The translations under genes and the position numbers were made by a program. The notes under the pieces were generated by a model. The model did no database searches, was not told the DNA's origin, and was given only the letters and a program-made list of their open reading frames with translations. DNA of 40,172 bases from a virus, in IMG/VR virus record IMGVR_UViG_3300045988_146023; one strand, given 5' to 3'. Shown piece by piece: positions 1,372-38,353 of the stretch (position 1 is the first letter of the stretch; each line of letters begins with the position of its first letter).

Positions 1372-1401
1372 AGCCGCCCCGGGAGCTTATCCGGAGCGGC
1401 T
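1372..1401. terminator. Hairpin terminator downstream of the leftward accessory operon
   Basis: AGCCGC (1372-1377) pairs with GCGGCT (1396-1401), with an inner CCGG/CCGG pairing. The flanks are T/A-rich on both strands. Confidence 0.55.
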
Positions 1402-2392: not shown

Positions 2393-2563
2393 TCATTCTA
2401 CCTCGTATCCGTTGGCGCCCATAAAATACTCACGGCCCAGGGTCGTTACAAACGCGCTGTCACAGTCTCCGTCTGTTTCGATCTCCATCGTGTAGACTGT
2501 GGCGGCGTGGCCGCCTGCAAAGGCAAGGGCGGCGGTGAGCAATACGGCAATGAATGCTTTCAT
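2393..2563 (-). CDS. Small secreted protein (56 aa) with an N-terminal signal peptide
   Basis: MKAFIAVLLTAALAFAGGHAA is followed by a polar domain. SD GAAGGAGGAG lies upstream of ATG 2563. Confidence 0.6.
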   Translation of the reverse strand: MKAFIAVLLTAALAFAGGHAATVYTMEIETDGDCDSAFVTTLGREYFMGANGYEVE

Positions 2564-2750: not shown

Positions 2751-2765
2751 AGTATTTTTTCCTTT

Positions 2766-2833
2766 CTGCCCTGCCATCGTCAGCACTGGTGGGGCGGTTC
2801 CAGTGGACCCCCGAAGGGGTTTCGGCTGTTGGG
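2766..2833 (-). ncRNA. Type II hammerhead ribozyme (HH-B)
   Basis: On the minus strand: AACAGCC-GAAA-CCCC-UUCG-GGGG-U-C^CACUGG-(10-nt loop)-CCAGUG-CUGACGA-U-GGCAGGGC. Core positions are CUGACGA 2783-2777, GAAA 2823-2820, U16.1 2807 and C17 2806. Loop I GCCC (2795-2792) is complementary to GGGC (2771-2768). Confidence 0.8.
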
Positions 2834-2865
2834 TGAGTCCCTGCTTTTCATGTCCTGCCGCCTCC

Positions 2866-3369
2866 TTACGCTGTAGCGGTTTCGATGTCCTGGGATCCAC
2901 GGGAGCGGAATGCCTGACTGCCGTACTTGGTGCGGATTTCCGCCATGGAGGACTTGCCACGGTACCAGCGGGAACCGGCCTCGGCGTGGTGCCAGTACCA
3001 CTTGGCTTTATTTTTGGACCACTTGCAGCCAGCTGCCTTGAGCTTGTCCTTGTTGGCCTTGGTGTTGCCGCCGATCCAGAGCCAGGACCCGCAAAGCTCG
3101 ATCTCAAGGCCGTCCAGGCGGAGCAGGATGTCCAGGATCTGCCGGAACTCTTCGGCGGTCTCGGTGGTGGTCTTCGTTTTGCCGGTGGTGTCGGCCTGGG
3201 CCTGGGCGTTGTGCTGGCGCTTGAGGATCTCAAAGAGGGCGTCGTGTTCGTTGTTGATCTCCTGCATTGCCTCGGTGCTGCCGCCACAGTCTGGGTGGTA
3301 CTGCATGGCCAGACGGCGATAGGCCTTCTTGAGCTCGTCCAGGGTCTTGATATTCTCGAAGTATTTCAT
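2866..3369 (-). CDS. J-domain (DnaJ-like) protein
   Basis: The N-terminus LDELKKAYRRLAMQYHPDCGG..EAMQEINNEHDALF contains the HPD tripeptide. The C-terminal domain is Trp/Lys-rich (CGSWLWIGGNTKANKDKLKAAGCKWSKNKAKWYWH). SD GAGAGGAG is present. Confidence 0.85.
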   Translation of the reverse strand: MKYFENIKTLDELKKAYRRLAMQYHPDCGGSTEAMQEINNEHDALFEILKRQHNAQAQADTTGKTKTTTETAEEFRQILDILLRLDGLEIELCGSWLWIGGNTKANKDKLKAAGCKWSKNKAKWYWHHAEAGSRWYRGKSSMAEIRTKYGSQAFRSRGSQDIETATA

Positions 3370-3389
3370 GGGGTGTTCTCCTCTCTGTT

Positions 3390-3467
3390 GCGTCGGCCTG
3401 CCTCATCAGCGCCGGGAGGCCGTTCCTCGGCGGACGCCCTGAAGGGCGTTTCGGCTGTTTACCACGC
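3390..3467 (-). ncRNA. Type II hammerhead ribozyme (HH-A)
   Basis: On the minus strand: AACAGCC-GAAA-CGCCC-UUCA-GGGCG-U-C^CGCCG..CGGCG-CUGAUGA-GGCAGGCCG. Core positions are CUGAUGA 3409-3403, GAAA 3452-3449, U16.1 3434 and C17 3433. Loop I CGGCCU (3422-3417) is complementary to AGGCCG (3399-3394). Confidence 0.85.
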
Positions 3468-3684
3468 TACCACCCAGGGAAGCCCGCTTCCGTTCCATCT
3501 GTTGTGGTAGATTGCCGCAGTCTTTATGTCTAGGTATGTAAATTTGCTCTTTGCGCGTTTTCCGCCACAGTAAACGGGTATGCCTTGCTTTTTTAAGTTC
3601 ATTTACCTTTTTCAGCGCGTTGCGCCGATCTTCGTACCATGCGAAATTATGAACCATATCCACGGTAATAGTGTTATGCGCCAT
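3406..3684 (-). CDS. Hypothetical basic protein (92 aa) whose 3' end overlaps HH-A
   Basis: SD AAGGAGGAG lies upstream of ATG 3684 (MAHNTITVDMVHNFAWYEDRR...). The last ~25 codons run through the ribozyme, and the stop codon is the UGA inside CUGAUGA. Confidence 0.55.
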   Translation of the reverse strand: MAHNTITVDMVHNFAWYEDRRNALKKVNELKKARHTRLLWRKTRKEQIYIPRHKDCGNLPQQMERKRASLGGSVVNSRNALQGVRRGTASRR

Positions 3685-3727
3685 TGTATTCTCCTCCTTG
3701 CCCTCGTAACCTCCGGGGCGGGGGTAA

Positions 3728-3868
3728 TTATTTAACTTTTGATTCCTTCCCACAAGGGTTTTTGGGGGAAGATACGGAACAACCATACTTTTTGCACCAA
3801 TCATAAGTTCCGTACTTTGTTTTCCTAGTGGTATTGTAGGGGCAATTTTTGCAACCGCAAGTTTTCAT
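3728..3868 (-). CDS. Small Cys-rich protein (46 aa)
   Basis: MKTCGCKNCPYNTTRKTKYGTYDWCKKYGCSVSSPKNPCGK. SD GGGAGGG lies 4 nt before ATG 3868. It is the first gene of the leftward operon. Confidence 0.55.
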   Translation of the reverse strand: MKTCGCKNCPYNTTRKTKYGTYDWCKKYGCSVSSPKNPCGKESKVK

Positions 3869-3922: not shown

Positions 3923-3952
3923 ATGGTAGCACGTTACAACGTGCAATGTCAA
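3923..3952 (-). promoter_or_regulatory. Leftward promoter with a palindromic operator in its spacer
   Basis: On the minus strand: TTGACA (3952-3947), an 18-nt spacer, then TACCAT (3928-3923). The spacer contains the perfect palindrome GCACGTT-AC-AACGTGC (3929-3944). Confidence 0.55.
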
Positions 3953-4002
3953 GCCATGATACTGACCAAAAGATGGGGCTGCGTTTTGTGCAAAATATAC
4001 AC

Positions 4003-4056: not shown

Positions 4057-4308
4057 ATGAACGAGGAACGCAAGGTATCTGCAGCAAAGAGGGCCAGCAA
4101 CGATAAATGGGATGCGGAGCATATGGCATATCAAACGGTTAAGGTTCGGCGGGAGCTGCTGGAGGAGTTCCGCGTTGCCTGCAAGCTGCGAGGGGATCCC
4201 GTTAACGCTGTGCTGCGGAGAGCAATGGAGGACTACGTAGAGCAGGCAAAGACTGCGCCAGGACAGCAGGAAGCACAAGAGCAGGGAGAGGACCAGGGGC
4301 AACCATAA
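4057..4308 (+). CDS. Ribbon-helix-helix (CopG/Arc-like) DNA-binding protein
   Basis: MNEERKVSAAKRASNDKWDAEHMAYQTVKVRRELLEEFRVACKLRGDPVNAVLRRAMEDYVEQ fits a strand-helix-helix pattern. SD GGAGGTG lies 6 nt before ATG 4057. Confidence 0.6.
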   Translation: MNEERKVSAAKRASNDKWDAEHMAYQTVKVRRELLEEFRVACKLRGDPVNAVLRRAMEDYVEQAKTAPGQQEAQEQGEDQGQP

Positions 4309-4483: not shown

Positions 4484-4517
4484 TTAGATTGGGAAAAGTC
4501 TAGATTTACTAGATTTC
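4484..4517 (+). repeat. Tandem CTAGATTT repeats just upstream of the terS SD
   Basis: CTAGATTT occurs at 4500-4507 and 4509-4516, with a third degenerate copy TTAGATTG at 4484-4491. Confidence 0.6.
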
Positions 4518-4536
4518 AGGAAGGGAGGTAAGCCAG

Positions 4537-4923
4537 ATGGCACAGACAAGAAAGGTAGAATCCGCTGAAAAGCTGATGAAATATATAGATGATTTCATTA
4601 AATACTGCGAGGAAAACGGTGAAATCCCTTCCAACTATAACCTCTGTAAATTCCTGTCGGTGAGTGCTGCGACACTGAGTAGGTATGAGGCGGGGGATGG
4701 GAATTATAAAGGATACGAAATCCCATTCAAAAACCTGCGGCAATACAGAGAGCACCGGCTGCTGAGTATGCTAGAGGGCGATCCCAAGAGAGCAGCAGCA
4801 GCGATCTTCCAGCTGAAACAGCCATTTAATGGAGGCTATGTGGAGTCCACGCAGCAGGTAGACCAGGGCGCAACCGTTACCCTCAAGATCGAGGGAGTGG
4901 GCGGAGTCGATGCTTTCAAGTAG
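4537..4923 (+). CDS. terS: Terminase small subunit
   Basis: 128 aa. The N-terminal HTH-like region (IDDFIKYCEENGEIPSNYNLCKFLSVSAATLSRY) and AAAAIFQLKQPFNGGY are typical of Firmicutes phage small terminases. It sits at the head of the packaging module. Confidence 0.7.
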   Translation: MAQTRKVESAEKLMKYIDDFIKYCEENGEIPSNYNLCKFLSVSAATLSRYEAGDGNYKGYEIPFKNLRQYREHRLLSMLEGDPKRAAAAIFQLKQPFNGGYVESTQQVDQGATVTLKIEGVGGVDAFK

Positions 4924-5653: not shown

Positions 5654-5729
5654 GGTTCCCTATCTCAAGAGGCAGAGATCCCGGCTCATAACCGGGAATA
5701 TCCTGGTTCGAGGCCAGGGGGAACCACCA
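5654..5729 (+). tRNA. tRNA-Met (anticodon CAT), or tRNA-Ile2 if the C is lysidinylated
   Basis: Hand-folded cloverleaf. Acceptor GGTTCCC/GGGAACC; D stem TCTC/GAGA with loop AAGAGGCA; anticodon arm CCCGG-CTCATAA-CCGGG; variable loop AATAT; T arm CCTGG-TTCGAGG-CCAGG; discriminator A; encoded CCA. G1:C72 argues against an initiator. Confidence 0.85.
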
Positions 5730-5901: not shown

Positions 5902-5936
5902 AGACCTCCCTGGGAATGGCTGGGGAGAAGGACCGA

Positions 5937-5982
5937 ACGGGGTCAACTTGTTGGAATTTCCGACAGGTTGGCCCCGTTTTTG
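5937..5982 (+). terminator. Strong rho-independent terminator 35 nt upstream of terL
   Basis: A 14-bp stem (5937-5950 with 5964-5977, two G-U pairs) followed by TTTTT (5977-5981). Confidence 0.8.
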
Positions 5983-6016: not shown

Positions 6017-7477
6017 ATGAGCAAGGTCCAGAAGAAGGACGTGGTCTGGGACCCGGGAGAAGCCAACGCGAAGCAGAAGCTGTTCTATCTCTCCCGAACA
6101 ACCTATACCGCTTATGGCGGGGCCAAGGGCGGCGGCAAGACCCATGCCGTTCGCATCAAGGCTGTGGGTGGGGCCATTGCCAACCCGGGCATCAAGATCC
6201 TCATCATGCGGCGGACCTATCCAGAATTGGAGGAAAACCACATCCGGCCCATTGTGAAGATGGTGCCGCCTGCGCTGGCCTCCTACAACGCCACCACCCA
6301 CCTGATGACCTTTCACAACGGGAGCACCATCAAGTTTGGCCATTGGAGCGGCGACGCCTCGGAGGATGAGTACAACGGCCTGGAATATGACTGGATTTTC
6401 ATCGACGAGGCCACGCAGTTTTCCGAGCGGAGTTTCAATTTCCTGGGCGGCTGCTTGCGCGGCGTGAACCAGTTCCCAAAGCGGATGTACCTCACCTGCA
6501 ACCCCGGCGGCGTCGGCCACCGGTGGGTGAAGCGGCTGTTCATTGACCGGCAGTTCAAGCAGAACTGCGACAACCCGGAAGAGAACGAGAATCCGGAGGA
6601 TTATACCTTCATCCCGGCGACGGTGGAGGACAACTACCACCTGATGGCCTCTTCCCCGGGGTATGTGCGGATGCTGGCGAACATGCCGGAGGATAAGCGG
6701 CGGGCCTACCGGTACGGCGATTGGAATGCCATCGGCGGGAACTTTTTCCCGGAATTCTCTACCGCGACCCACGTTGTGCAGCCGTTTCGCATCCCGGAGC
6801 ATTGGCAGCGGTACCGCAGTTTCGACTACGGCCTGGACATGTTCGCCTGCTTCTGGTGGGCGGTAGACGAAGACGGAAGGTCTTGGTGCTACCGGGAATT
6901 CACCCACAAGGGCCTCATTGTCAAAGAGGCGGCAGAGAAGATCCACGAGTTGACGCTGCCGGGAGAGCATGTTTCTGCCACCTATGCCCCGCCGGATATG
7001 TGGAGCCGGCAAAAAGACACCGGCAAGACCATGGCGGAGGTGTTCATGCTGAACCAGGTTGGCCTGATCCGGGCGGACAACAACCGGGTGCAGGGACACC
7101 TGATGATGAAGGAAGCGTTGGCCCCAAGGCCGCTGCGCGACCCCTATGTGCAGGCTATGTTCCGCCGGGAAGACGGGACGGCGCCGGACAAGCTGCCGGG
7201 CCTTATGTTCTTCGATGCCTGCAAAGAGGTTATCGGGGATATCCAGGATATCCAGGCGGACGAGAAAAACCCCAACGACTGTGCCAAGGACCCCCACGAA
7301 GTGACCCACACGGTGGACGGGGTGCGGTATTACTGCATTTCCCGTGTGCTGCCTGCACAGCCGGAGAAGGACGAGAAGAAGGTTGTCCTGTATGACGATG
7401 ACGAGGACAGCATGGAGAGCTACGAGGAGTTCATGGTAGGAAGCGGGGCCCCCAGCCCCAGCTATCTTGCGTTGTGA
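6017..7477 (+). CDS. terL: Terminase large subunit
   Basis: 486 aa. Walker A is YGGAKGGGKTH and Walker B is WIFIDEATQF. The C-terminal half is nuclease-like with conserved acidic residues. Confidence 0.92.
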   Translation: MSKVQKKDVVWDPGEANAKQKLFYLSRTTYTAYGGAKGGGKTHAVRIKAVGGAIANPGIKILIMRRTYPELEENHIRPIVKMVPPALASYNATTHLMTFHNGSTIKFGHWSGDASEDEYNGLEYDWIFIDEATQFSERSFNFLGGCLRGVNQFPKRMYLTCNPGGVGHRWVKRLFIDRQFKQNCDNPEENENPEDYTFIPATVEDNYHLMASSPGYVRMLANMPEDKRRAYRYGDWNAIGGNFFPEFSTATHVVQPFRIPEHWQRYRSFDYGLDMFACFWWAVDEDGRSWCYREFTHKGLIVKEAAEKIHELTLPGEHVSATYAPPDMWSRQKDTGKTMAEVFMLNQVGLIRADNNRVQGHLMMKEALAPRPLRDPYVQAMFRREDGTAPDKLPGLMFFDACKEVIGDIQDIQADEKNPNDCAKDPHEVTHTVDGVRYYCISRVLPAQPEKDEKKVVLYDDDEDSMESYEEFMVGSGAPSPSYLAL

Positions 7478-13708: not shown

Positions 13709-15910
13709 ATGGCGGAAATCAAGGCAAGCAGCGACGAGAAGGTGTTTCGCGTCCATGAATTTCTAGGCCTGAATGAAAGCCCAGACGGCGACACAAAGCT
13801 GAAACTGGGCGAGGCATCGGTCATGCGGAATTTTAAGATTACCCGGGACCGTTCGTTGCAGAAGAGGCCGGGACTTGATTCTGTCGGAAGTATCGTCAAG
13901 GACAACGTCATTCAGATCTCTTCGTCTTCCACTGCCGTCCGTGTGGACAATAATGTTTCGAGCGCACTGCAACTGTACCCGAACGCCTCCCTTGTCAATG
14001 ATGAAATTGAACTTTCCGGGGACTACGTTAGCGTGACTTATGAGAACTGGGAGGATGCCAAATGGTTTTACTGGCATGGCACGGACAACAACTACTACCA
14101 GCTGGACCGGTGCGAAATGTCCGTTGATGGAGATACAACAACATACACTTGGTTTATGTACCTTGTGTCTGTCGTTCCTGCCGGGGATGCCGTCGCAAAC
14201 GTGAACGGGCTTTGGAGTGGCGTCGTGGGCGGGAAGAGAATGGTTGTTGGCTCTGTCGATGACGGAATTGTTCTTGTCTGGCACGAGGATGAAGGATTTG
14301 TATTCCGGGACATCGGGACTGTGAATTTGATCCGAGGAAAAGTAAGCGACATTACCTTTTTTGGCTTTTCCAACCGTCTATATATCCTTACCGGGAATAG
14401 TTACTACTATTGGGACGGAGAGGGGGATCTGACGCTTGTTATTTCCTATGAAGCGTATGCCCCCCTTGTTGCAGTATCAATCCCGCCGAACGGAAGCGGC
14501 GGAGGGGCGACTCTACAACAGATAAACAGCATTTCAAACATAGCTCGGGCGTGGCTCTCTCCAGAAGGAGAGGCGGACGTTCTTGGGGAATTACGTTTTC
14601 CGCTTCCAGGGACAACGGAACTTAGAGAAACCTTTATGGATGTTAGGTATTTAGCCACGGGAGAAAGTGTTCCATCCAATTCGTGGTATGTGGGCAATGA
14701 TCCCGATACAGGGTTGGAAAACATTATTGTAATTGCTGATGAGGCAGCGAAAAGAGGGCAGAACACGATAGAAGTCACATACAACATAGATAATAGTGTC
14801 CAATCCTATAACCCGTTTGATTCTTTTGGCGGCGTCCTTCCAGGCATGAAATATATAGAAATGTATAATGGGGCAACGGACTCAAGAATTTTTCTGTATG
14901 GAGATGGGACGAACAGAGTCTATTATTCCGATTTCGATGAAAACGGCGTTCCAAGGGCGGACTACTTCCCGGAGCTTAATGTGATCAATATAGGCTCGGA
15001 AAACACACCAGTCACCGGATTGATCCGGCACTACTCCCGCCTTATCGCATTCAAAGAGGATGAAGCGTACTCTATCCAATACGGAACCATCACGCTTCCG
15101 GACAACACCACTACGGCGGCCTTTTACTGCACACCAATCAACCGGAATCTGGGCAATGAAGCTATGGGACAGGCTCGTCTCGTTCTGAATTCCCCGTATA
15201 CCCTGTGCGGAAAAGACTTGTACGAGTGGAGAAACAACTCGTCCTACTCCAGCAACCTGACTATCGACGAACGGCAGGCCAAACGGATTTCCGATAGGGT
15301 ATACGCGACGCTTGCGACTTTTGAATTCTCCCGATGCTACTGCTACGACGATAAAGACCATCAGGAATACTATGTGTGCTACGACAAGAAGGCGCTTGTG
15401 TACAACTATGCAGCGGACGCTTGGTACTATTACACTAATTTTGACGTGACGCGCATGGTGAATCTGAATGGGGAGTTATATGCCGGAGATAGCCTTGGGA
15501 GACTGAACCTGGTATCTAGGAACAATCGGACAGACAACGGAACGGAAATCACCGGATACTGGGCTTCCGGGGCGGAACCCTTCGACCGGGAGTTTATGCG
15601 AAAATACTCCGCTATGCTTTGGGTGGTATTGAAACCGGAACTGCGTTCTCAAGTCACGGTGACAGTAGAGACGGACCGAAAGAGCGACCACAGCAAGAAG
15701 GTGGCAGCTTCTTCGGTATTCTCTTTTGGGAGCGCAGATTTTCGCCGGTGGTCTTTTAACACCAACCGAAAGCCGCACACCACGAGATTGAAAATCAAGG
15801 CAAAAAAATTCACCTATTACAAGTTGATCCTGGAATACTCCGGGACGAACACCACGGCGACGGTGGTTGCCGCAGATATGCGGATCCGGTACACCGGATA
15901 CGCCAAGTGA
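13709..15910 (+). CDS. Large virion structural protein (tail/nozzle candidate)
   Basis: 733 aa, beta-rich, with lower GC than its neighbours, located between the head genes and the fibre gene. The function is inferred from position only. Confidence 0.4.
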
Positions 15911-15923
15911 GGAGGGCGAGAGA

Positions 15924-18056
15924 ATGAGCCTGAACCCTTTGAATGAGGATCTAAATATCATTTCCAGTTTGGTGATCCCGGAGTTGGACGAAGACCTCGA
16001 TGTCATCCAGAAACTGGATGACGAACCCAACGACGTTGGCGGTCTGACGGCGTCGGAACTCAAGGCGGAGTTTGACAAGGCCGGGAATATCATCAAGGAC
16101 TATATCAACAATGAATTACGCCCCAAACTCTCCGGCACCATTGCGGAAGAAGAAGAGCGGGAGGCTGCCGAGGCGGAGCGCGTTCAGGCCGAGCAGGGCC
16201 GTGTGACCGCAGAGAAAGGGAGAGTTTCTGCGGAGAAAAGCCGGGTTACTGCCGAACAAGGGCGGGCCAGCGCGGAGACTCTGCGAGGCCAGGCAGAGAC
16301 CGACCGGGCGGACGCGGAGGACGAAAGAATCTCTGCGGAGGAAGGCCGTGTCTCCGCAGAGCAGGCCCGGGTGCTGGCGGAACAGGGCCGAGTTTCTGCT
16401 GAACAGGAACGGGTTCAAGCGGAGAAGGAGAGAGAGGACGCCGAGCAGGCACGGGAGGATGCCACCACCGGCATTGTGGCCCAGGCCACCGTCCAGGCGA
16501 AAGCGGCGGCCCAGTCGGCGAAGGATGCAGCGGCGGCGCGGGACGCCATTGTTGACCTTGAGGTGGCCAGCACGGAACTGCCCGCAGGGTCCACCCCCAC
16601 GGTGACGAAATCCACCACCAGCACGGGAAATGTTTTGCTGACCTTCGGCCAGGTTCCTGGCCCCCAGGGCGTACAGGGGCAGACAGGCCCCCAAGGGCCT
16701 GCCGGGCCCCAGGGCGATCCAGGACCGCAGGGGCCCCAAGGCATCAAGGGCGACCCTGGAGACACTGGACCTCAAGGTTTGCAAGGCCCCCCTGGCGAGA
16801 AGGGAGACCCCGGCGCACAGGGCCCGAAGGGTGACCAGGGGGACCCCGGCCCCCAGGGCCCTAAAGGGGACAAGGGGGAAAAAGGCGACCCCGGCGACAC
16901 CGGTCCGACCGGATCGGAAGGTCCCCAAGGTCCGAAGGGAGACCCGGGCGACACCGGACCGGAGGGCCCTATGGGGCCCCAAGGACCCAAGGGAGATACG
17001 GGAACCGGGCTTGACATTAAGGGAACCTATGAGAGCCTAGAAGCCCTGCAGGCCGGTGTACAGAGCCCGGCGCAGGGAGACATGTACAATGTTGGCGCGG
17101 CGGCTCCCTACACCATCTACATGTGGGACACCACAGACACTCCGGGCTGGAAGAGCCAGGGGCAGCTGCAAGGGGCAAAGGGCGACCCCGGCCCGCAAGG
17201 GCCCAAAGGCGACACGGGGCCCCAGGGAGCAAAAGGCGATCCCGGGGCGGCTGCCGGATTTGGCAATGTCTCCGCCACGGTGGATGACGCAACAGGGACG
17301 CCCTATGTCGATGTGGAAACATCCGGCCCAGACTCGGCACTGAACATCTCCTTCGTCTTCCACAACTTGAAAGGTCCCACAGGACAAACAGGAGAGCAGG
17401 GCCCTGCCGGGGAAACTGGCCCCAAGGGAGATACCGGAGACCAGGGGCCGAAGGGGGATACTGGACCGGCGGGAGCAGACGGAGGATATTACTCCCCTGC
17501 CGTGGACAGTTCTGGGAACCTGAATTGGAATGCCAGCAAGGTCGGGATGCCGTCAATCCCCGAAACGAACATCCGAGGCCCACAGGGTCCGCAAGGCCCC
17601 GCAGGGGCTGACGGCGCTCCCGGCGCACAAGGTCCAGCAGGGCAGGATGGGGCTCCTGGCACTCCTGGTGCTGATGGTTCAGACGGAGCCGATGCCACCA
17701 TCAACGGTGTGAACGCCCTTACGATGAACGTGACAGGTGGCTTGAACGGTCAACAGATCGGGAACACCTACACCATTGACGGGAGTGGAAAAGCCGATAA
17801 GCCTATCAAGGTTTCTATCTCTATCCCAACATCAGGTTGGACAAACAACAAACAGACCTTCGCTGTGCCAGGCGTTCCGTCAAACTCGACTACATACGAA
17901 GTGCATCTAGCCCAAGTGGGCGCAACCAACGTCGAAGCGGCAATGGCTTGCGGCCTCTATATTTCGGACGAGGCTCAGGATAGCCTAACCTTGGCAGTAA
18001 GCAGTGTGCCGACGAGTAGTTTTACTGTGTATGTCGTGATCCAGTTGTTAGCATAG
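15924..18056 (+). CDS. Collagen-like tail fibre protein
   Basis: SD GAGGAGGG precedes ATG 15924. It contains an AE-rich repeat region ([29 protein letters not shown]...), four Gly-X-Y tracts and a non-repetitive, lower-GC C-terminal domain. Confidence 0.8.
16659..17007 (+). repeat. Collagen triple-helix (GXY) tract 1, the longest
   Basis: [40 protein letters not shown]...GPKGDTGTG, in frame with 15924. Confidence 0.9.
17172..17246 (+). repeat. GXY tract 2
   Basis: [25 protein letters not shown]. Confidence 0.85.
17373..17486 (+). repeat. GXY tract 3
   Basis: [38 protein letters not shown]. Confidence 0.85.
17577..17687 (+). repeat. GXY tract 4
   Basis: [37 protein letters not shown]. Confidence 0.85.
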
Positions 18057-21252: not shown

Positions 21253-24200
21253 TTGCCGTTGAACATGAAACTTGGCGTGATGACGCCGGACGAATGGCTC
21301 CAAAACACCGTTGGCCAGGCGAACAAGAACAAGGGAAATTCTTCCAGTTCCAGTAAAAAGCCCTCTTCCAATCCGGCAAAATCATCTTCCAGCAAGAACA
21401 ACGGGGTGTTTACCGGAAACTTTGCAAAGGACTTCGAGACCCGGAAGAACATTCAAAAGAAGCAAAATTCCTATGGAGCGAAGCTAGGTAAGGCAGCATA
21501 CGACACCCAGGCAAAGCGGCTCCAGGATAAAATTGACAGCGCCAGAGACGGAAATGCCCGGACGCGGTACCAAAATCAGTTGGCGGAACTGCGTGCTCGG
21601 GCAAACGCTACCCTTCCCGGCGGCCTTGCTGGGATGGAGGAGGCGGAGGAAAGGGAAACCTCCGCCGCACAGCGCCGAGCCCCCCGGGAGCAGCGAGAGC
21701 GTCAGGCGAAGATTGACGCACTGAACGAAAAGTTAAGCAAGACCACAGACCGCCGGACCCGGGCGGCTTACCGGCAGGAGATCCGAGACCTGGAATACCC
21801 TCTGAGTGCATCGGACCAGCGGTTGGGCCACCTCTCCCGAGACATTATCCAGGATGCCAAGGAGCAGTATGACGAGGGAACGCAGCTGATCCGGGAAGGG
21901 TTTGAGGAAGAGGGGCGGCGGATCCAGGAGCAGGCCCACCTCATGGCGGAGTACCAGCGGGCATTGGCCGGGTATTCCGGCGGCGGAAGCGGGGAGGACC
22001 GCTTTGTCCCTGAACTGACCGCGCAGGAAAACCAGATTATGACCGCCGAAGGAAAGCAGGCCCTTCGTGCGGCCAAACGGCTGTATGAACTGGGGGAAGA
22101 GACCGGAAACGAGGAACTGAAAGAGACGGGCCGGATCCTGGGGCAGAATGTCCGTCTAACCCAGAACAGCTACGACCTGGACAAGATCCGGGAATTGCGG
22201 TCTAAAGAGCCCACCGTGAAACGCACCGACGCCCACGGGCGGCCGATTTACACCCCCACGGAACTGGAGGCAGAGGGGCAGAGGAACTTTTTTCCCGCCA
22301 TTTGGAATCAGATTACAGGCTCCCTCCTCAGCCTTGGAGAGGCTGCCCATGCCGCCACGCGGGAGGCCATCAGCAACCGGAACAATACAGCATACCAGAG
22401 CAACCAGGATGCCGCTGCTTACTGGGACAGACAGGCCAGAACGGCCCAGACAGAGGAAGCCAGAAAACAGGCGGAAGAGAACGCCCAGAAGGCTCGGGAG
22501 ATGGTAGAACAACTCCGGGCCAAGGAGGAAGTGCATCCCTGGTCGGAGGGCCAGTGGAGGCTTCGCCAGGCGGCCCAGCAGCAGGAAACGGTACAGAACA
22601 GCATCGACAGCCCCTTTGGGCGGCTGGTGAACCAGGCCGCCATGTCTGCCCTGGGGATGGCCCCGGCCCTGGGCCTTTCCGCCGTGGCCGGTCCTGCTGC
22701 CGGTGCCGCGCTGATGGGTGCCCAGGCCGCAGGCGGCAAGGCCGGAGAACTGCTGTCCAGAGGGGAGTCTGGCACGGAGGCCCTTGGACGCGGTCTTGTC
22801 TCTGGTGCCATTGAAGGAGTTACGGAGAAAATCCCCATCGGGAACCTGGTGCGCATTGCCAGGGGCGCCGGCGGTGCATCCTGGCTGCGGAACATGGCTC
22901 GTCAAGCAGGGATTGAGGCCACGGAGGAATCGGCATCCTATGCCCTGAACTATGCCGCCGACGTGGCGGCCAGGGACCCGGAGGCGGAATTTTCTCTGCA
23001 AGACCTGTTGGAAGGGGCGGCTGTGGGTGCCCTTACCGGCGGGGCATTGGGCGGCGGCGCGTCCGCGCTTTCGGGCGGGACCACGGCTGCCAGGGGAAGA
23101 ACCAGAGGAGGGACTGCCGCCGCGCAGGACGCAGCTAGACGGGCGGTACAGGAGGTCACCCGGGAGACCCAGGCGCAAATGCCGAGCGCCCCAGAGAACC
23201 CTCTGCTCCAGACTATCCAGGAGACCCGACGGGAACAGGAGCAGGCGGCGAGAATGGAGCCGGAGGAACCCCAGGGGCCCCAGTCGGTCCTCAATCAGGT
23301 GGTGGAACAGGCTGCCGCTGAGCGGAACGCCAGACGGGAGGCAGATACGGCCCCCGCACAGGAAGCGCCTCAAACCCTGGCGGAACGGGAAGCCAGATAC
23401 CAGCAGCGGTACCAGGACTATATGCAGCGGGCCCGGGCCGCAGCGGAGGACCCGTCTCTGCAAACGCCTGAGAATTACCAGGCGCTGCGGTTGGAACTGG
23501 ATGAGATCCAGAATGAGTACAACGGGATCCTCCAGGCCCGGCGGGTAGAGTCCGGGGAGGTTTCCACAGACTACAACACCCCGGAAAACCATATCGACAA
23601 CCGGACCACCGAGGATGTGGAAAACCGGTCCGTCAAAGCCTTCCAGTTTGACTATCCCCAGCTGCACCCCTACTATGTCCAGGCGGCCCAGGCTCTGATG
23701 GAGGACGCCAACTGGAGCCTGGAAACCCAGAGTAACCAGAAGGGCAAGGGGACGGTGGCCCGGTATTCCGAGGCCCTGGAGCGGGCGGCGAACCTGGGCC
23801 TCTCCCGCCAGGAGATCATCCGGGTGTGCCAGGACATTATTACAGACCGGGGGCAGGAGAACTACGCCGCCGCCAAGAAGGTGGAACTGATCCTGGACCA
23901 GATGCTTTCGGAGGGATACACCCCCAACGAAGCCCTGGGGAACCCGGACCAGCGGGTGGGCCCTAATGAAGCCTATCTACAGACGAAGGAGGCCATTCCC
24001 GGGGCGGTGACAAGGGATTCCTTCGAGCACTACCTGCGGCAAAATGCACTTGCCATGGATGCCGGGGAGGTGACGGAGGAGCAGCTTCGGCAGGAGTGGG
24101 AGGCGCGAAGAACAAACGAAGAGAGCGATGGTATGTCCTTCTGGACCGGCGCCCGTCAAGGCAGCTCCGGAGACATAACATCGCCCTCTGCGAACAGAGT

Positions 24201-27200
24201 ACAGGAAAACGAAAGAACTGTCAATAACAATGTGCTTCAAAAAGTGGCAGAGCATCAAGACGAAATTTCTGCGCACGGGACAGTATCTGAGTTGACGGGG
24301 AATGAGTTTTCTGATGTTCACACCAGAAAAGAGATCGAAAACGCAGTCACGGAGTTTTACCAAGAAATCGGGGCTGTAGACAGGCCCGGGTTTGGTACTG
24401 TACGTCTAGGCCGCCGAGGGGTAAAGGACAGTTTGGCTCACGGGTATGGCCAGAAGAAGATTGCGGCCTTCGCTTCGGTCCCTGACGTTATTCAGGATGG
24501 CGTACAAATCGACTATCAGCCGAACTGGAAGGGACGCGACTATGATACTTATATTATTGCTGGAGATGTAACTATTGGTGGAGAGCCAAACACGGTTGGC
24601 GTTGTTTTGATTCGAAGAAAGAATGACAGCCGATTCTACCTCCATGAAGTCACAACGACAAAAAATGGAGACGCAACGTCGTTCCAAACCGGGGCCACCG
24701 AAGAAACTTCGGCCCGCTTACCCGGCGACGTTACATCTCCTATGGATATTATACAGGATCGAGGTGCAACTGTCAATCCCGAGTTGCCGGAGGAGCAAGC
24801 TCGGTACAGCGTGGGCGCAGCTCCTAGTGGATTTGACCCGTATTCCCGGATGCTGAATGAATACGGGGCTATTGCACCGGGCGAGAAACCGGCGCGGATG
24901 GTGGACGTACCACGCAGTACCGACGGACAAGACCGGGTACGTCAGTCTGCCAGAACATTCATGGAAGCGGAAGCCACTCCGGATGCACTGGTGAATTTGT
25001 TCCAGCAGGGCGTAGTGAACAAGGAGTGGTCCTATAATCCGAAGAAGGACAAAGCTAGTGTGGACCGGGCCATGGGCATTCTGCGTCAAAGGGACGGCTT
25101 CCAGAATGGCCTGAACCAATGGAATGAAATGGTTTCCACCGGACGGCAGGCTACAAAGGACGATGTGGTCATGGCGCAGATGATCTATAAAGCCGCAGCC
25201 AATGCCGGAGACTATGAAACTGCTGGACGGCTGGCGGGTGAGATTGCTGCACTTGGTACCATTTCCGGGCAAAATATTCAGGCGCTTCGTCTGCTGAAAC
25301 GAGCCACGCCGGAAGGAAAACTGTTTTATATCCAGAAGGGCGTTGACCAGGTCAACGATACGATGGAGAAAAAATACGGGGAGGGTTTCCATGGTATCGA
25401 GGTCCCGGATGAACTGTACCAGCAGTACATGAACGCTGAGACCAATGAAGCCCAGATTGCGGCCCTAGATGCCATCTATGACTATGTGGCGGAGCGCGTC
25501 CCCCGCACTTTTGGGGATGCTTTGGATACCTGGCGTTATTTCGCCATGCTGGGAAATCCTCGCACACATATCCGAAACGTCCTGGGCAACGTTATCATGC
25601 AGGGGCCGATCCAGGCACGAAACGCACTTTCTGCGGGACTACAAAACGCTCTGCTCCCTCAAGAACAGAGGACCCGCTCTGTGGGGGCCAACCGTGCCAC
25701 CAGGGACTTTGCGCGACAGGATTTTGAAGCCAACAAGGATGTCCTTCGAGGTAATCCTTACACTACGCCGGAAGGCGGAGAGATTATGCGTCGGGTCCGA
25801 GAAAAGGGACTGACCGTTGACAAGGGGAAACAGGAGCGCAGTGCCTTCTGGCGTGGCGTTAACACGATGTTGAAGCCGCTTCAAGGAGCCGCTTCTGCAA
25901 ACAGTAACTTGATGGACTTTGAGGACATGGTTTTCAAGAAGAGCACTTATATCAACAGTCTGTCGAACTTCTTGAAAGCCAGGGGTTATGACCCATCTAC
26001 ACAGGACATCCCGGAAAATGTGTTGGAAGAAGGTCGGGGGCAGGCTATCGAGGATGCGCTGGAATCCACTTTCCAGAATTATTCCTCCCTTGCGAGCAAA
26101 CTGGCAGAGTTAGAGAGCTCCAGCAGAGCGGCCAAACTGGTGATTGGCGGCCTTATGCCCTTTAAGAAAACCCCCATCAATATTACGAAACGAAGCATTG
26201 AGTTTTCCCCTATTGGCTTGTTCCGTGGTATGCACCAGTGGTTGAGCAAAGTGCCAAAGGGAGAGACCACCGCAGCGGAAGCGCTAGACAACATTGCAGC
26301 AGGCATTACCGGTTCCGGCATCGTTGCTATCGGTGCTTTTCTGGCGTCTCAGGGACTGATTAACGCAGGAGACGATGAAGATGACCGGCTCCGCGATTTT
26401 GGCGTAGCGCAAGGATCTCAGGAGTATTCCTTGAACGTCGGGGATTATTCCTATACCATTGACTGGGCGGCACCGTCTGTCATTCCTCTCTTCCTTGGGG
26501 TGGAGGGATACAATGCCTTCAAACGTCTTCTGGATGAGCAGGAAAACGAGGATAGCCCCGGGTTCTTTACAGAAACCGTCAATGCCATTTCCCGCATGTT
26601 TGAACCCATGATGAACATGACCATGCTTTCTGGCCTCAGTGGGGCAATTCAGAGCGCAGCATACAATCAGGCTAACCCGATTATCGGGATTGGCTCCAAC
26701 GTGGCGCAGAATTTCCTTGGGCAAGTGTTCCCTACCCTGTCCGGACAGATTGCCCGCACCATCGACGATACCCGCCGGACAACCTTTTATGATAAGACCA
26801 CGGACGTTCCAAAGGGTTTGCAGACCTTCCTTCAAACTCAAATGAACAAGATCCCCGGCCTATCCCAAAGAAACCCGGCTTGGCTGGATAGTTGGGGGCG
26901 GGCCGATGTCACGGAAAACCCCCTCGTTCGTTTTCTGGAAAACTTCCTTTCTCCCGGCTACATTGCAGAACGTAACACGGATGATGTGGATACCGAATTG
27001 CAACGTCTCTATGACCTCGGGGAAGAAGGTGTTTTGCCGAAGAACCCGGAGAAGAGCGCAGAGGTGGATGGCAAACGCCTCACCGCCGAACAGTGGCAAA
27101 CCTATGCTCAGACAAAGGGTTCGGAGTCTCGGGACATGTTGGAGGGAATTATATCTTCCCCGCAGTATCAGGAGTTGTCCGACCAGGATAAGGCGAAGGT

Positions 27201-28005
27201 TGTCCGAAAGGTATTTGAATATGGCACCTATAGCGGCAAGGAGGCGATTGGTGCAGATACCAGTAAGTTTGACTCTTGGTATGGCAAGCTTATTGAGGGG
27301 AGAGACCAGCACGGCATTTCTCCTGTGGACTACCTGACTATGTACATCGGCAAGAGCAACATCGACAACGACGAAAGCAAGTCTAATCAACAGCAGGGTA
27401 TGGATGTCGCCGCCATGATTGACAGCAATGACCGTCTAAACGACGATCAAAAGAAATACTTGAAAGAGAACCTTAAAGTTTACAACTTTAACCCCGTAAA
27501 TATTGGGGATGACTCTAAGTATCAACAAGCCATTAACGCAGGATTCTCTCCGGAGGAGGCCGCCGAAGGGTATAAGATTATCGAGGGAGCAAAAGCTTAT
27601 GGTGAGGACGGCGAACTGGATGAATCCGAATTTGAACGCTATATGCGGGAAAAGATGAGTATTGAGCCTGGTACGGAGGAGTATAACAAGTATCTGAAAG
27701 CTTATGGGAATCGAGACTGGAAAAGTGTGAAGGCTCTTATCGGCGATACCACTTCCTCTGGACACAAAGGCTACACCATGAATGACCAGAGGTACAGTTC
27801 CGCTGTCAACGCCGGTTTCGATGAGGAAGCGGCGAAGGAACTTTCCATTGGCCGTCAAGTTGCCGATCAAGAATTCGGAAACGGGAACGGGACTCTTAGT
27901 AAAAACGAGTTGGTAAATTACATCCAGAGTAATTACTCTCAAAACCAGTGGAGAACCGTATACTCTGTTCTTGCTAACTCGAACTGGAAAAATCCGTTCG
28001 GATAA
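21253..28005 (+). CDS. Giant multidomain (polyvalent-type) virion/ejection protein, 2250 aa
   Basis: An uninterrupted ORF starting at TTG, 6 nt after AAGGAGGG. It contains coiled coils, Gly/Ala-rich hydrophobic segments and a lower-GC insert (about 24390-24660, ...GVKDSLAHGYGQKK..FYLHEV). The C-terminus carries two repeated modules with EF-hand-like loops. Confidence 0.8.
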   Translation: MPLNMKLGVMTPDEWLQNTVGQANKNKGNSSSSSKKPSSNPAKSSSSKNNGVFTGNFAKDFETRKNIQKKQNSYGAKLGKAAYDTQAKRLQDKIDSARDGNARTRYQNQLAELRARANATLPGGLAGMEEAEERETSAAQRRAPREQRERQAKIDALNEKLSKTTDRRTRAAYRQEIRDLEYPLSASDQRLGHLSRDIIQDAKEQYDEGTQLIREGFEEEGRRIQEQAHLMAEYQRALAGYSGGGSGEDRFVPELTAQENQIMTAEGKQALRAAKRLYELGEETGNEELKETGRILGQNVRLTQNSYDLDKIRELRSKEPTVKRTDAHGRPIYTPTELEAEGQRNFFPAIWNQITGSLLSLGEAAHAATREAISNRNNTAYQSNQDAAAYWDRQARTAQTEEARKQAEENAQKAREMVEQLRAKEEVHPWSEGQWRLRQAAQQQETVQNSIDSPFGRLVNQAAMSALGMAPALGLSAVAGPAAGAALMGAQAAGGKAGELLSRGESGTEALGRGLVSGAIEGVTEKIPIGNLVRIARGAGGASWLRNMARQAGIEATEESASYALNYAADVAARDPEAEFSLQDLLEGAAVGALTGGALGGGASALSGGTTAARGRTRGGTAAAQDAARRAVQEVTRETQAQMPSAPENPLLQTIQETRREQEQAARMEPEEPQGPQSVLNQVVEQAAAERNARREADTAPAQEAPQTLAEREARYQQRYQDYMQRARAAAEDPSLQTPENYQALRLELDEIQNEYNGILQARRVESGEVSTDYNTPENHIDNRTTEDVENRSVKAFQFDYPQLHPYYVQAAQALMEDANWSLETQSNQKGKGTVARYSEALERAANLGLSRQEIIRVCQDIITDRGQENYAAAKKVELILDQMLSEGYTPNEALGNPDQRVGPNEAYLQTKEAIPGAVTRDSFEHYLRQNALAMDAGEVTEEQLRQEWEARRTNEESDGMSFWTGARQGSSGDITSPSANRVQENERTVNNNVLQKVAEHQDEISAHGTVSELTGNEFSDVHTRKEIENAVTEFYQEIGAVDRPGFGTVRLGRRGVKDSLAHGYGQKKIAAFASVPDVIQDGVQIDYQPNWKGRDYDTYIIAGDVTIGGEPNTVGVVLIRRKNDSRFYLHEVTTTKNGDATSFQTGATEETSARLPGDVTSPMDIIQDRGATVNPELPEEQARYSVGAAPSGFDPYSRMLNEYGAIAPGEKPARMVDVPRSTDGQDRVRQSARTFMEAEATPDALVNLFQQGVVNKEWSYNPKKDKASVDRAMGILRQRDGFQNGLNQWNEMVSTGRQATKDDVVMAQMIYKAAANAGDYETAGRLAGEIAALGTISGQNIQALRLLKRATPEGKLFYIQKGVDQVNDTMEKKYGEGFHGIEVPDELYQQYMNAETNEAQIAALDAIYDYVAERVPRTFGDALDTWRYFAMLGNPRTHIRNVLGNVIMQGPIQARNALSAGLQNALLPQEQRTRSVGANRATRDFARQDFEANKDVLRGNPYTTPEGGEIMRRVREKGLTVDKGKQERSAFWRGVNTMLKPLQGAASANSNLMDFEDMVFKKSTYINSLSNFLKARGYDPSTQDIPENVLEEGRGQAIEDALESTFQNYSSLASKLAELESSSRAAKLVIGGLMPFKKTPINITKRSIEFSPIGLFRGMHQWLSKVPKGETTAAEALDNIAAGITGSGIVAIGAFLASQGLINAGDDEDDRLRDFGVAQGSQEYSLNVGDYSYTIDWAAPSVIPLFLGVEGYNAFKRLLDEQENEDSPGFFTETVNAISRMFEPMMNMTMLSGLSGAIQSAAYNQANPIIGIGSNVAQNFLGQVFPTLSGQIARTIDDTRRTTFYDKTTDVPKGLQTFLQTQMNKIPGLSQRNPAWLDSWGRADVTENPLVRFLENFLSPGYIAERNTDDVDTELQRLYDLGEEGVLPKNPEKSAEVDGKRLTAEQWQTYAQTKGSESRDMLEGIISSPQYQELSDQDKAKVVRKVFEYGTYSGKEAIGADTSKFDSWYGKLIEGRDQHGISPVDYLTMYIGKSNIDNDESKSNQQQGMDVAAMIDSNDRLNDDQKKYLKENLKVYNFNPVNIGDDSKYQQAINAGFSPEEAAEGYKIIEGAKAYGEDGELDESEFERYMREKMSIEPGTEEYNKYLKAYGNRDWKSVKALIGDTTSSGHKGYTMNDQRYSSAVNAGFDEEAAKELSIGRQVADQEFGNGNGTLSKNELVNYIQSNYSQNQWRTVYSVLANSNWKNPFG

Positions 28006-38082: not shown

Positions 38083-38353
38083 ACGCAGCGAACAGGTGAT
38101 CACAAAATGGGAGATGATTGCCATAGAGGGTATTCTCAGTAGCCTATTTCGCTTCCCCGTACCCGAGGCCGGTAAACCAACCCGGCTTTCCGATGCGTTG
38201 AAACACAGGCCGTTGCTGTGAGTGAGGATGCAAGGGGGATAGAAGCATGGTGACTCATGCGTCTATGGTTCAAACCAAACCGTAGTTTGCACCCTACATC
38301 GGGTTCAAGAACGGAAGAAGATGTCCGGGAGTCACACCGGGCATTTTCTTTGC

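Follow-up and report, generated by a model that had tools for sequence, protein, structure and literature searches.

Hammerhead ribozymes on both sides of a J-domain gene in a gut phage operon: likely release of a linear single-gene mRNA

Hammerhead and twister ribozymes number in the hundreds in bacteria and their phages, and the role of these elements is still unsettled (PMC6765202). The question is raised in compact form by the virus record IMGVR_UViG_3300045988_146023, a DNA stretch of 40,172 nt (hereafter the window; coordinates are positions in it, and operon features lie on its minus strand), in which two hammerheads, HH-A and HH-B, bracket a single gene for a J-domain protein. A sequence-only reading of this DNA had proposed that double cleavage excises this one gene from its operon and that the released RNA may be closed into a circular mRNA. 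What, then, would the two ribozymes do for the gene that they enclose? The explanation that we favor, and consider probable, is co-transcriptional cleavage of the operon into three linear RNAs, with the hammerheads serving as insulators between gene cassettes that are swapped. The middle product would likely be a linear single-gene J-domain mRNA; the uncoupling of one gene from its operon thus stands from the earlier proposal, and its circular form does not.

Both hammerheads were recovered on the gene strand in intergenic gaps, which bears out the claim that two same-strand elements flank the J-domain gene and no other. HH-A (3389..3457, minus strand) is matched by the Rfam Hammerhead_II family (RF02276) with 47.3 bits at 3456-3392 (-), against a gathering score of 37, and an E-value of 8.5e-07 over the whole window. 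HH-B (2763..2828, minus strand), immediately followed by the Shine-Dalgarno sequence (SD) AAAGGA of the next gene, receives 32.3 bits from the same family at 2827-2765 (-), which lies under the gathering score, with an E-value of 0.0015 in a permissive search of 8 kb. An independent covariance model, built from 36 type II hammerheads of unrelated phage contigs with all copies from the J-domain locus left out, was run over the whole window with filters off and scored HH-A at 67.4 bits (E 1.5e-18) and HH-B at 53.9 bits (E 2.1e-14). Because the next best match to this model reaches only 10.5 bits (E 0.37), the window holds exactly two hammerheads.

The catalytic core is complete in each copy, comprising CUGANGA, GAAA, the A15.1-U16.1 pair and a non-G nucleotide at the cleavage site H17 (GUC). 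HH-A is composed of a helix II 5' strand (GCC), GAAA, the helix III hairpin, GUC at 3435-3433 with the cut after C3433, the helix I hairpin at 3432-3410, CUGAUGA at 3409-3403 and the helix II 3' strand GGC at 3402-3400, and a 6-bp pseudoknot joins CGGCCU in loop I (3422-3417) with the tail AGGCCG (3399-3394). The corresponding parts of HH-B are GAAA, the helix III hairpin, GUC at 2808-2806 with the cut after C2806, helix I at 2805-2784, CUGACGA at 2783-2777, an extra U at 2776 between A9 and G10.1, and the helix II 3' strand GGC at 2775-2773, with a 4-bp pseudoknot between GCCC in loop I (2795-2792) and the tail GGGC (2771-2768). Rfam alignments, pattern search and the independent model agree on a type II topology for both, in which helices I and III are loop-closed and helix II is open, and a pseudoknot of loop I with the 3' tail, as both possess, is the defining mark of the natural type II class. 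This open helix consists of 3 bp, GCC/GGC, and the strand strings read AACAGCC...GGCAGG in both copies; the two elements are alike in the core and in these strings only, their helices I and III and their pseudoknots being different.

The extra U of HH-B brings up the possibility that one or both hammerheads, HH-B being the likelier of the two, are inactive relics and that the operon RNA stays polycistronic or is cut once. The Rfam score of HH-B under the family threshold would agree with this, as would the hammerhead decay seen in two relatives (L003, in which the 5' half of HH-B is missing, and L103, in which a weakened copy scores 26.2 bits) and the remark of Perreault et al. that some clustered hammerheads may be non-functional (PMC3088659). 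Every core nucleotide is nevertheless present in both copies, position 7 is variable by definition, and both peculiarities of HH-B are common in the family, C at position 7 occurring in 23 and the extra U in 24 of the 102 unique phage type II hammerheads. Thirty of the 102 have an additional nucleotide behind A9, among them copies that score 53-60 bits in Rfam, and some of the 36 copies used for model building carry the same kind of variant.

Comparison of sequences also argues for maintenance of the fold. In close relatives of the window, which carry the canonical CUGAUGA, helix I of HH-B is kept through two double changes (CACUGG/CCAGUG against UACCGG/CCGGUA), and the pseudoknot differs between HH-A and HH-B in a compensating manner (GGCC/GGCC, within the 6-bp pairing, against GCCC/GGGC). 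HH-A can be compared with a single relative, L003, which shows one G-C to G-U change. Across the family, 94.7% of the cells in helices I and III are paired, the covariation score was reached by none of 500 shuffles, and all five pairs of helix I and three pairs of helix III change on both sides. The matched length of the pseudoknot in the 102 unique sequences averages 3.96, against 3.14 +/- 0.08 when loops and tails are permuted (about 10 standard deviations). Both hammerheads therefore look functional as judged from their sequences, and in view of the independent score and the compensatory changes we regard inactivity of either one as distinctly improbable.

The enclosed gene (2866..3369, minus strand) is a 504-nt open reading frame (ORF) for a protein of 167 aa, preceded by the SD GAGGAG at 3383-3378. 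Residues 8-52 form a J domain with the HPD motif, which is invariant in the alignment of related J proteins; the assignment is carried by a Pfam DnaJ match over residues 9-52 (E 1.2e-08), by matches to J domains in the PDB and by the family phrog_15863. The C-terminal domain is conserved and uncharacterized. Cleavage at both sites would release nt 3432 down to 2806 (2806..3432, minus strand), and direct reading of the sequence gives for this predicted product the same 627 nt as had been claimed, namely a 63-nt leader with the SD, the 504-nt ORF and a 60-nt trailer. Its 5' end is buried in the helix I and pseudoknot region of HH-A, and at the 3' end it would close with the helix III hairpin of HH-B and a final C. 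By the established chemistry of hammerheads, the termini would be a 5'-OH and a 2',3'-cyclic phosphate.

In the linear scheme that we favor, each hammerhead would fold as the operon is transcribed and cut itself after C3433 and C2806, respectively. The sole duplex that joins the products of a type II hammerhead is its helix II, and because this is a very weak duplex of 3 bp, the products would be expected to separate at once and to re-ligate poorly. Three RNAs would result: an upstream piece with two small genes, the 627-nt J-domain mRNA, and a downstream piece with the anti-CRISPR-like and HNH-like genes (cistrons between 1406 and 2750). Each new 5'-OH end would have its first base paired in a GC-rich helix I and pseudoknot directly ahead of an SD, and each new 3' end would consist of a GC-rich helix III hairpin and one nucleotide with the cyclic phosphate. 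Every cistron would in this manner receive defined, hairpin-capped ends of its own, and its stability and translation could become independent of whichever cassette adjoins it. The hammerheads would then be natural insulators at places where cassettes are often exchanged, a role that fits the frequent exchange of neighbors at hammerhead edges described below. A synthetic counterpart is RiboJ, in which a hammerhead placed ahead of the SD strips off the variable 5' context, so that the leader starts with a 5'-OH and a hairpin cap.

The sequences themselves establish the integrity, conservation, position and orientation of the motifs; precedent from other prophages makes cleavage in vivo a reasonable expectation and also bears on the novelty that had been claimed. 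Perreault et al. (2011; PMC3088659) described hammerheads that flank single prophage genes, among them a triple hammerhead around ardA in A. tumefaciens and examples in C. scindens and A. caulinodans, observed cleavage of such clusters in vitro as well as in E. coli, and proposed that long phage transcripts are processed into single-gene mRNAs. The single-gene arrangement and the idea of a circle were consequently in print, and the layout itself is not new. As in those clusters, same-strand hammerheads, type II copies included, flank one gene in a prophage accessory region near the integrase, and HH-A and HH-B have the pseudoknot between loop I and 3' tail seen in the published type II copies; the differences are the gut Clostridiales phage, the J-domain gene, which is absent from that report, and the fact that the present case is known from sequence alone. 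A J-domain gene as the hammerhead-flanked gene appears not to have been reported before, and our literature searches for a link of DnaJ or J-domain genes with hammerhead or twister ribozymes, and likewise for RAGATH-5, returned none. The D. vulgaris pair loc 2 and loc 3 (Olzog et al. 2021; PMC8782182) is comparable in being same-strand, type II, a few hundred nt apart and set among phage-like genes, and differs in organism, genes and spacing (~313 nt, against 627 nt here); it is cleaved in vivo, leaving 2',3'-cyclic phosphate and 5'-OH, and no functional consequence has been established for it. Some fungal and plant RNA viruses likewise have a short intergenic region occupied by a hammerhead, whose cut, a few nt before the following ORF, provides this ORF with an RNA of its own (bioRxiv 10.1101/2024.05.16.594327), but those ribozymes are type I, belong to eukaryotic RNA virus genomes and are linked to cap-independent translation, whereas the present ones lie in a DNA phage operon with SD sites.

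In the more far-reaching proposal, the ends of the 627-nt RNA would be sealed, whether by a ligase of the RtcB type or by the rebuilt hammerhead itself, to yield a functional circular and translatable J-domain mRNA. The predicted 5'-OH and 2',3'-cyclic phosphate termini are indeed substrates of RtcB by established chemistry, and the 3' part of HH-A together with the 5' part of HH-B supplies a complete core with matching helix II strands at the junction of the hypothetical circle (...CUUCGGGGGUC joined to CGCCGAGGAACGG..., or in another written form ...CCCCUUCGGGGGUC to the left and CGCCGAGGAACGGCC... to the right of the junction). The topology of this chimeric hammerhead was correctly drawn, yet it holds for any two hammerheads of the same type, and its helix II of 3 bp would have to close about 575 nt. 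A purely thermodynamic folding prediction of the 627-nt RNA, in which pseudoknots are ignored, assigned the chimeric helix II a probability of about 7e-5 and a summed pairing probability of 0.01 between the first 30 and the last 40 nt, so that no end-to-end pairing is predicted. The identity of the helix II strands is real and carries little information, because GCC/GGC is the default allele of this helix, present in about 70% of copies. In hammerhead arrays of other phages, 36 of 51 neighboring pairs have compatible helices II against 28.3 +/- 3.5 expected (P ~0.017), an enrichment that would favor rebuilt chimeras; the other 15 (29%) cannot rebuild one, and so slight an excess can stem from local duplication.

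Conservation of the bracket points the same way. Recurrence with other ribozymes, twister-P1 on both sides of the J-domain gene in some relatives and twister-P1 with a type III-like hammerhead in L123, would be in keeping with a selected circle, but a survey of relatives for the hammerhead-gene-hammerhead arrangement found it at one of 91 distinct loci, the window itself, and a ribozyme pair of any kind at 4 of 91; the J-domain gene is moreover the first gene behind the promoter in L005 and others. Perreault et al. had considered circular and spliced products from such clusters, sought them and detected none (PMC3088659). A functional circle is on these grounds very improbable. Were it to be formed by a host RtcB-type ligase, it would be an exonuclease-resistant, translatable J-domain mRNA and a natural counterpart of engineered ribozyme-flanked circular RNAs; relatives flanked by two twister-P1 elements would also make circles, and the circle would be fairly stable, as the rebuilt hammerhead would rarely refold with 3 bp closing ~575 nt. 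In the engineered Tornado system, RNA between two twister ribozymes is ligated by RtcB after a designed terminal stem has united the ends; Tornado, like RiboJ, is synthetic, and a stem of the Tornado type is not predicted in the 627-nt RNA.

The likeness that had been drawn to viroid-like RNAs and retrozymes is limited to double cleavage that yields a unit RNA with 5'-OH and cyclic-phosphate ends and hammerhead halves at its termini. In viroid-like satellites and retrozymes the hammerheads, of type III or type I, sit within repeated units or long terminal repeats, highly self-complementary rods or branches hold the ends together, and the RNAs are non-coding and replicate or retrotranspose (PMC7761336, PMC5680766). 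The window, by contrast, has type II hammerheads with an open helix II of 3 bp around an ordinary mRNA insert, without a repeat unit, without predicted pairing of the ends and without conservation of the pair. Four hallmarks of circular hammerhead RNAs were compared here (a fold that unites the ends, repetition of the unit, the type of hammerhead, and retention of both elements among relatives), and this locus shares none of them.

The strongest comparative evidence on function comes from relatives of the J-domain gene, of which more than 480 (484 or more) occur in gut metagenomes. We assembled 22 relatives from viral contigs and added 80 metagenome loci, and 91 distinct loci were classified by pattern and BLAST. 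Close relatives, with 95-99% protein identity, share the phage backbone and differ precisely around the hammerheads, their homology blocks breaking at 3456, 3385 and ~2757, which are hammerhead edges. Among the close members of the 22 viral-contig relatives, HH-A occurs only in the window and in L003, most have HH-B only, and in L005 and others the J-domain gene lies straight behind the promoter and 5' untranslated region (UTR) as the first gene. HH-B with its SD (GGCAGGGCAGAAAGGA) is constant ahead of at least six different downstream genes. In the 91 loci, the slot downstream of the J-domain gene contains a type II hammerhead in 12, a type III-like hammerhead in 13, twister-P1 in 3, twister-sister in 2 and nothing that was found in 57, while the upstream slot is promoter-like in 21, RAGATH-5-like in 14, twister-P1 in 3 and a type II hammerhead in 2. 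Four of the five loci with an upstream ribozyme also have one downstream, against 26 of the other 86, the loci being related to one another. Judged by these comparisons, the slot elements are frequent, interchangeable and optional. The occurrence of four unrelated ribozyme classes or topologies in one slot around one gene is the strongest comparative argument that selection concerns cleavage, and it points to selection acting on cleavage itself rather than on one motif.

The same mosaic pattern lends itself to a different account, in which the hammerheads are mainly conserved linkers or hitch-hikers at cassette borders, their shared strings of 12-21 nt promote homologous exchange, and cleavage has little or no selected effect on expression of the J-domain gene. 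The breakpoints that coincide with hammerhead edges would be expected in such a case, together with the constancy of HH-B and its SD before so many genes, the presence of the 21-nt string from helix III of HH-B (GCCGAAACCCCTTCGGGGGTC) in 75 viral contigs, and the tolerated loss of HH-B in L003 and its weakening in L103. Breakpoints are, on the other hand, expected in intergenic DNA anyway, which is here wholly filled by hammerheads; the compensatory changes that keep helix I and the pseudoknot indicate that the folded RNA, and not DNA identity alone, has been under selection; and linkers at the DNA level do not explain why unrelated ribozymes share one slot. A role chiefly as linkers is in our judgment unlikely.

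Several observations weigh against insulation by cleavage and are considered together. HH-B lies under the gathering score of its Rfam family; a deletion of 63 nt has removed the 5' half of HH-B from L003, which indicates that the elements are dispensable; and in about two thirds of the relatives of the J-domain gene no ribozyme follows it. A 5'-OH end can, moreover, be open to attack by RNase J1 in Firmicutes, as with the product of the glmS ribozyme, which this enzyme degrades in Bacillus. Cleavage could accordingly destabilize the mRNA rather than stabilize it, which makes the direction of the effect on stability uncertain, and the protective role of the terminal helix, as well as any effect on translation, is inferred. 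In L003 and L104 (4515-4550), where HH-A is kept, the deletion that removes HH-B has a TG microhomology at its junction.

The locus does not settle the role of bacterial and phage ribozymes, and its value is that of a comparative test bed. Natural swaps in the slots (none, promoter, RAGATH-5, type II, type III-like, twister-P1 and twister-sister) around a constant J-domain gene, in a family of more than 480 relatives, would permit a direct test of whether cleavage, irrespective of ribozyme class, sets the level or lifetime of the neighboring mRNA, and the rare doubly flanked loci would show whether circles ever form. This picture of interchangeable slots around one gene family is a useful addition to the arrangement already published.

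The individual slot elements differ in how they were recognized. Twister-P1 stands on both sides of the J-domain gene in L011 (3910-3970 and 4522-4573), L132 and L133; the L011 pair scores 61 and 52 bits (E 1.8e-11 and 8e-9), under the family gathering threshold of 67.2. In L123 a twister-P1 precedes the gene and a type III-like hammerhead follows it, and L136 was grouped with these four loci for twister-P1 flanking of the gene. Twister-sister follows the J-domain gene in L014 and L100, and in L017 a twister-P5 lies one small ORF farther on. The minimal type III-like hammerhead (CUCCGUC^ CGCCGG..CCGGCG CUGAUGA GCAAGAGC GAAACGGAG, with a helix II of 2 bp) stands right after the stop codon of the J-domain gene in a group with 66-67% identity (L007-L010, L012, L013 and L018 at 4501-4570) and in 11 metagenome loci (e.g. 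L118 at 1218-1267); it was recognized by pattern search alone, is not reported by Rfam and shows no covariation. The 3' strand of its helix III shares nucleotides with the SD of the following gene, GGAGG, and cleavage and release might unmask this SD. Directly after the J stop codon, GCCGTCCCC occurs in many lineages whatever follows (e.g. L142, L150, L154 and L172).

Upstream of the gene, L001, L002, L004, L019 and L020 carry another structured motif in the HH-A slot near 3935-3975. This hairpin had been considered as a pseudoknot of the preQ1-I type or as a new ribozyme and proved to be RAGATH-5 (RF02685, listed in Rfam under the type 'ribozyme') or a short-stem variant of it; L154 scores 50.3 bits against a gathering score of 50, and the short-stem variant of the close relatives 13 bits. 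The motif or its variant also lies directly upstream of the J-gene SD in L014, L017, L102, L105, L106, L140, L141, L143, L145, L154 and L169. It resembles an H-type pseudoknot, in which AGG, AGGC, GGCG and CCGG covary with CCU, GCCU, CGCC and CCGG in the loop, and its tail AYCCCA is conserved. RAGATH-5 thus occupies the HH-A slot in many relatives and is not present in the window.

Two further ideas on the origin of the bracketed gene were set aside. The J-domain cassette is not a compositionally foreign insert, as its GC content of ~0.61 is that of the phage in general, and it is the upstream segment that stands out by being richer in AT. Nor do gene and hammerheads form a mobile cassette, since the J-domain gene is a stable resident of the backbone and it is the neighboring genes that vary.

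A similar layout is common in other phages. The independent model found 123 type II hammerheads in 70 loci (69 contig loci and the Dulem virus locus), including same-strand arrays of ten in ~5.2 kb (L079, 1642-6863 (-)), nine (L034) and seven (L075), with further arrays in L040 and L035. These arrays occur in high-GC phage contigs with one hammerhead per intergenic gap and a median spacing of ~570 nt; as a rule the gene ahead ends directly at the hammerhead and the gene behind begins within 15-30 nt, as is likewise the case in the window. Most of the genes between the hammerheads are small and of unassigned function, but an ArdA anti-restriction protein and a protein similar to mycobacteriophage L5 gp82 are encoded among them. 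Set beside these arrays, the pair in the window is, by its layout, the smallest case of a common pattern. Only three short matches came from the deposited phage collection, among them an HH-A-like hammerhead in Dulem virus 39. This phage (L023, PP511791.1) contains three unannotated type II hammerheads, at 2495-2563 (-), 4221-4288 (+) and 4703-4773 (+), one of which shares 87% identity with HH-A; a hypothetical gene of 74 aa lies between the two plus-strand copies.

We take the window to be the DNA of a temperate tailed phage with gut Clostridiales as hosts. It encodes an integrase (86-1147), a small-terminase-like gene, a large terminase subunit and a P22-like portal, with an S24 repressor-like protein at the far end, and a relative of the J-domain gene is present in a metagenome-assembled genome of a human-gut Clostridiales. 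The leftward operon that carries the hammerheads is placed between the integrase and the packaging genes. A promoter-like site, TTGACA-18-TACCAT (3923..3952, minus strand), would head this accessory operon, and a terminator-like hairpin (1372..1401, minus strand) would end it; both were recognized by match to the consensus, and no other terminator-like site was found on the minus strand between them. The 5' UTR behind the promoter-like site is the one that directly precedes the J-domain gene in L005, L103 and L107-L109. HH-A and HH-B are thus predicted to lie in one operon, in which the order is a 46-aa ORF, a 74-aa gene, HH-A, the J-domain gene, HH-B, a 54-aa ORF, a 56-aa ORF, a 78-aa AcrIC5-like ORF and a 295-aa AP2/HNH-like ORF, all on the minus strand.

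The first cistron is the small Cys-rich ORF of 46 aa (3728..3868), without a family match. The gene that follows (3459..3684) is a frameshifted copy, with six A in the run 3594-3589 where five keep the frame; once repaired, it encodes 74 aa with 70% identity over the full length to an intact 74-aa ORF in L099, and its true stop codon, TAA at 3461-3459, abuts HH-A. The frameshift could be that of a real pseudogene or a homopolymer error of assembly. An ORF of 3684-3406 that runs through HH-A to the UGA of CUGAUGA, and from which cleavage would have produced a non-stop mRNA, was ruled out by the L099 homologue, which shows this ORF to be an artefact of the 1-nt frameshift. Downstream of HH-B lie the 54-aa ORF (2750-2586), the 56-aa ORF with a signal-peptide-like start (2563-2393), the 78-aa ORF (2160-2396), which matches the Pfam AcrIC5 anti-CRISPR family above the cutoff (E 3e-10), and the 295-aa AP2/HNH-like ORF (2293-1406) as the last cistron.

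Directly upstream of the SD of the 74-aa gene stands a conserved intergenic motif, CGCCCCGGAGGUUACGAGGG (3701..3720, minus strand), without a match in Rfam. In the form CCCG-CCCCGGAGGUYACGAGGG-CAGAAAGGA it occurs in two copies in L099 and also in L124, and more than 120 viral contigs (L182 onward) share its 18-nt core, in every case located behind a stop codon and ahead of an SD. The motif could form a GCCC/GGGC hairpin, as read from its sequence, with a perfect SD-like GGAGGU displayed in the loop, and its 3' end (GGGCAGAAAGGA) matches the tail of HH-B.

Other features of the window lie outside the operon, all on the plus strand. A tRNA-Lys (UUU) at 1146-1218 begins at the stop codon of the integrase gene and is probably the tRNA part of the attachment site, and a tRNA-Met (CAU) at 5654-5729 lies between the small and large terminase genes. 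A gut-2 RNA (Rfam RF02990, 47 bits) at 5903-5950, just upstream of the gene for the large terminase subunit (6017-7477), is kept at the same position in nearly all relatives, with its 3' end overlapped by a terminator-like hairpin, and a weak match to FuFi-1 RNA is present at 38185-38350 (37.2 bits against a gathering score of 59.6, E 9e-05). Among the larger genes are an ORF of 729 aa with collagen triple-helix repeats (15867-18056) and one of 2250 aa with an LPD3 domain, of the large polyvalent protein type (21253-28005).

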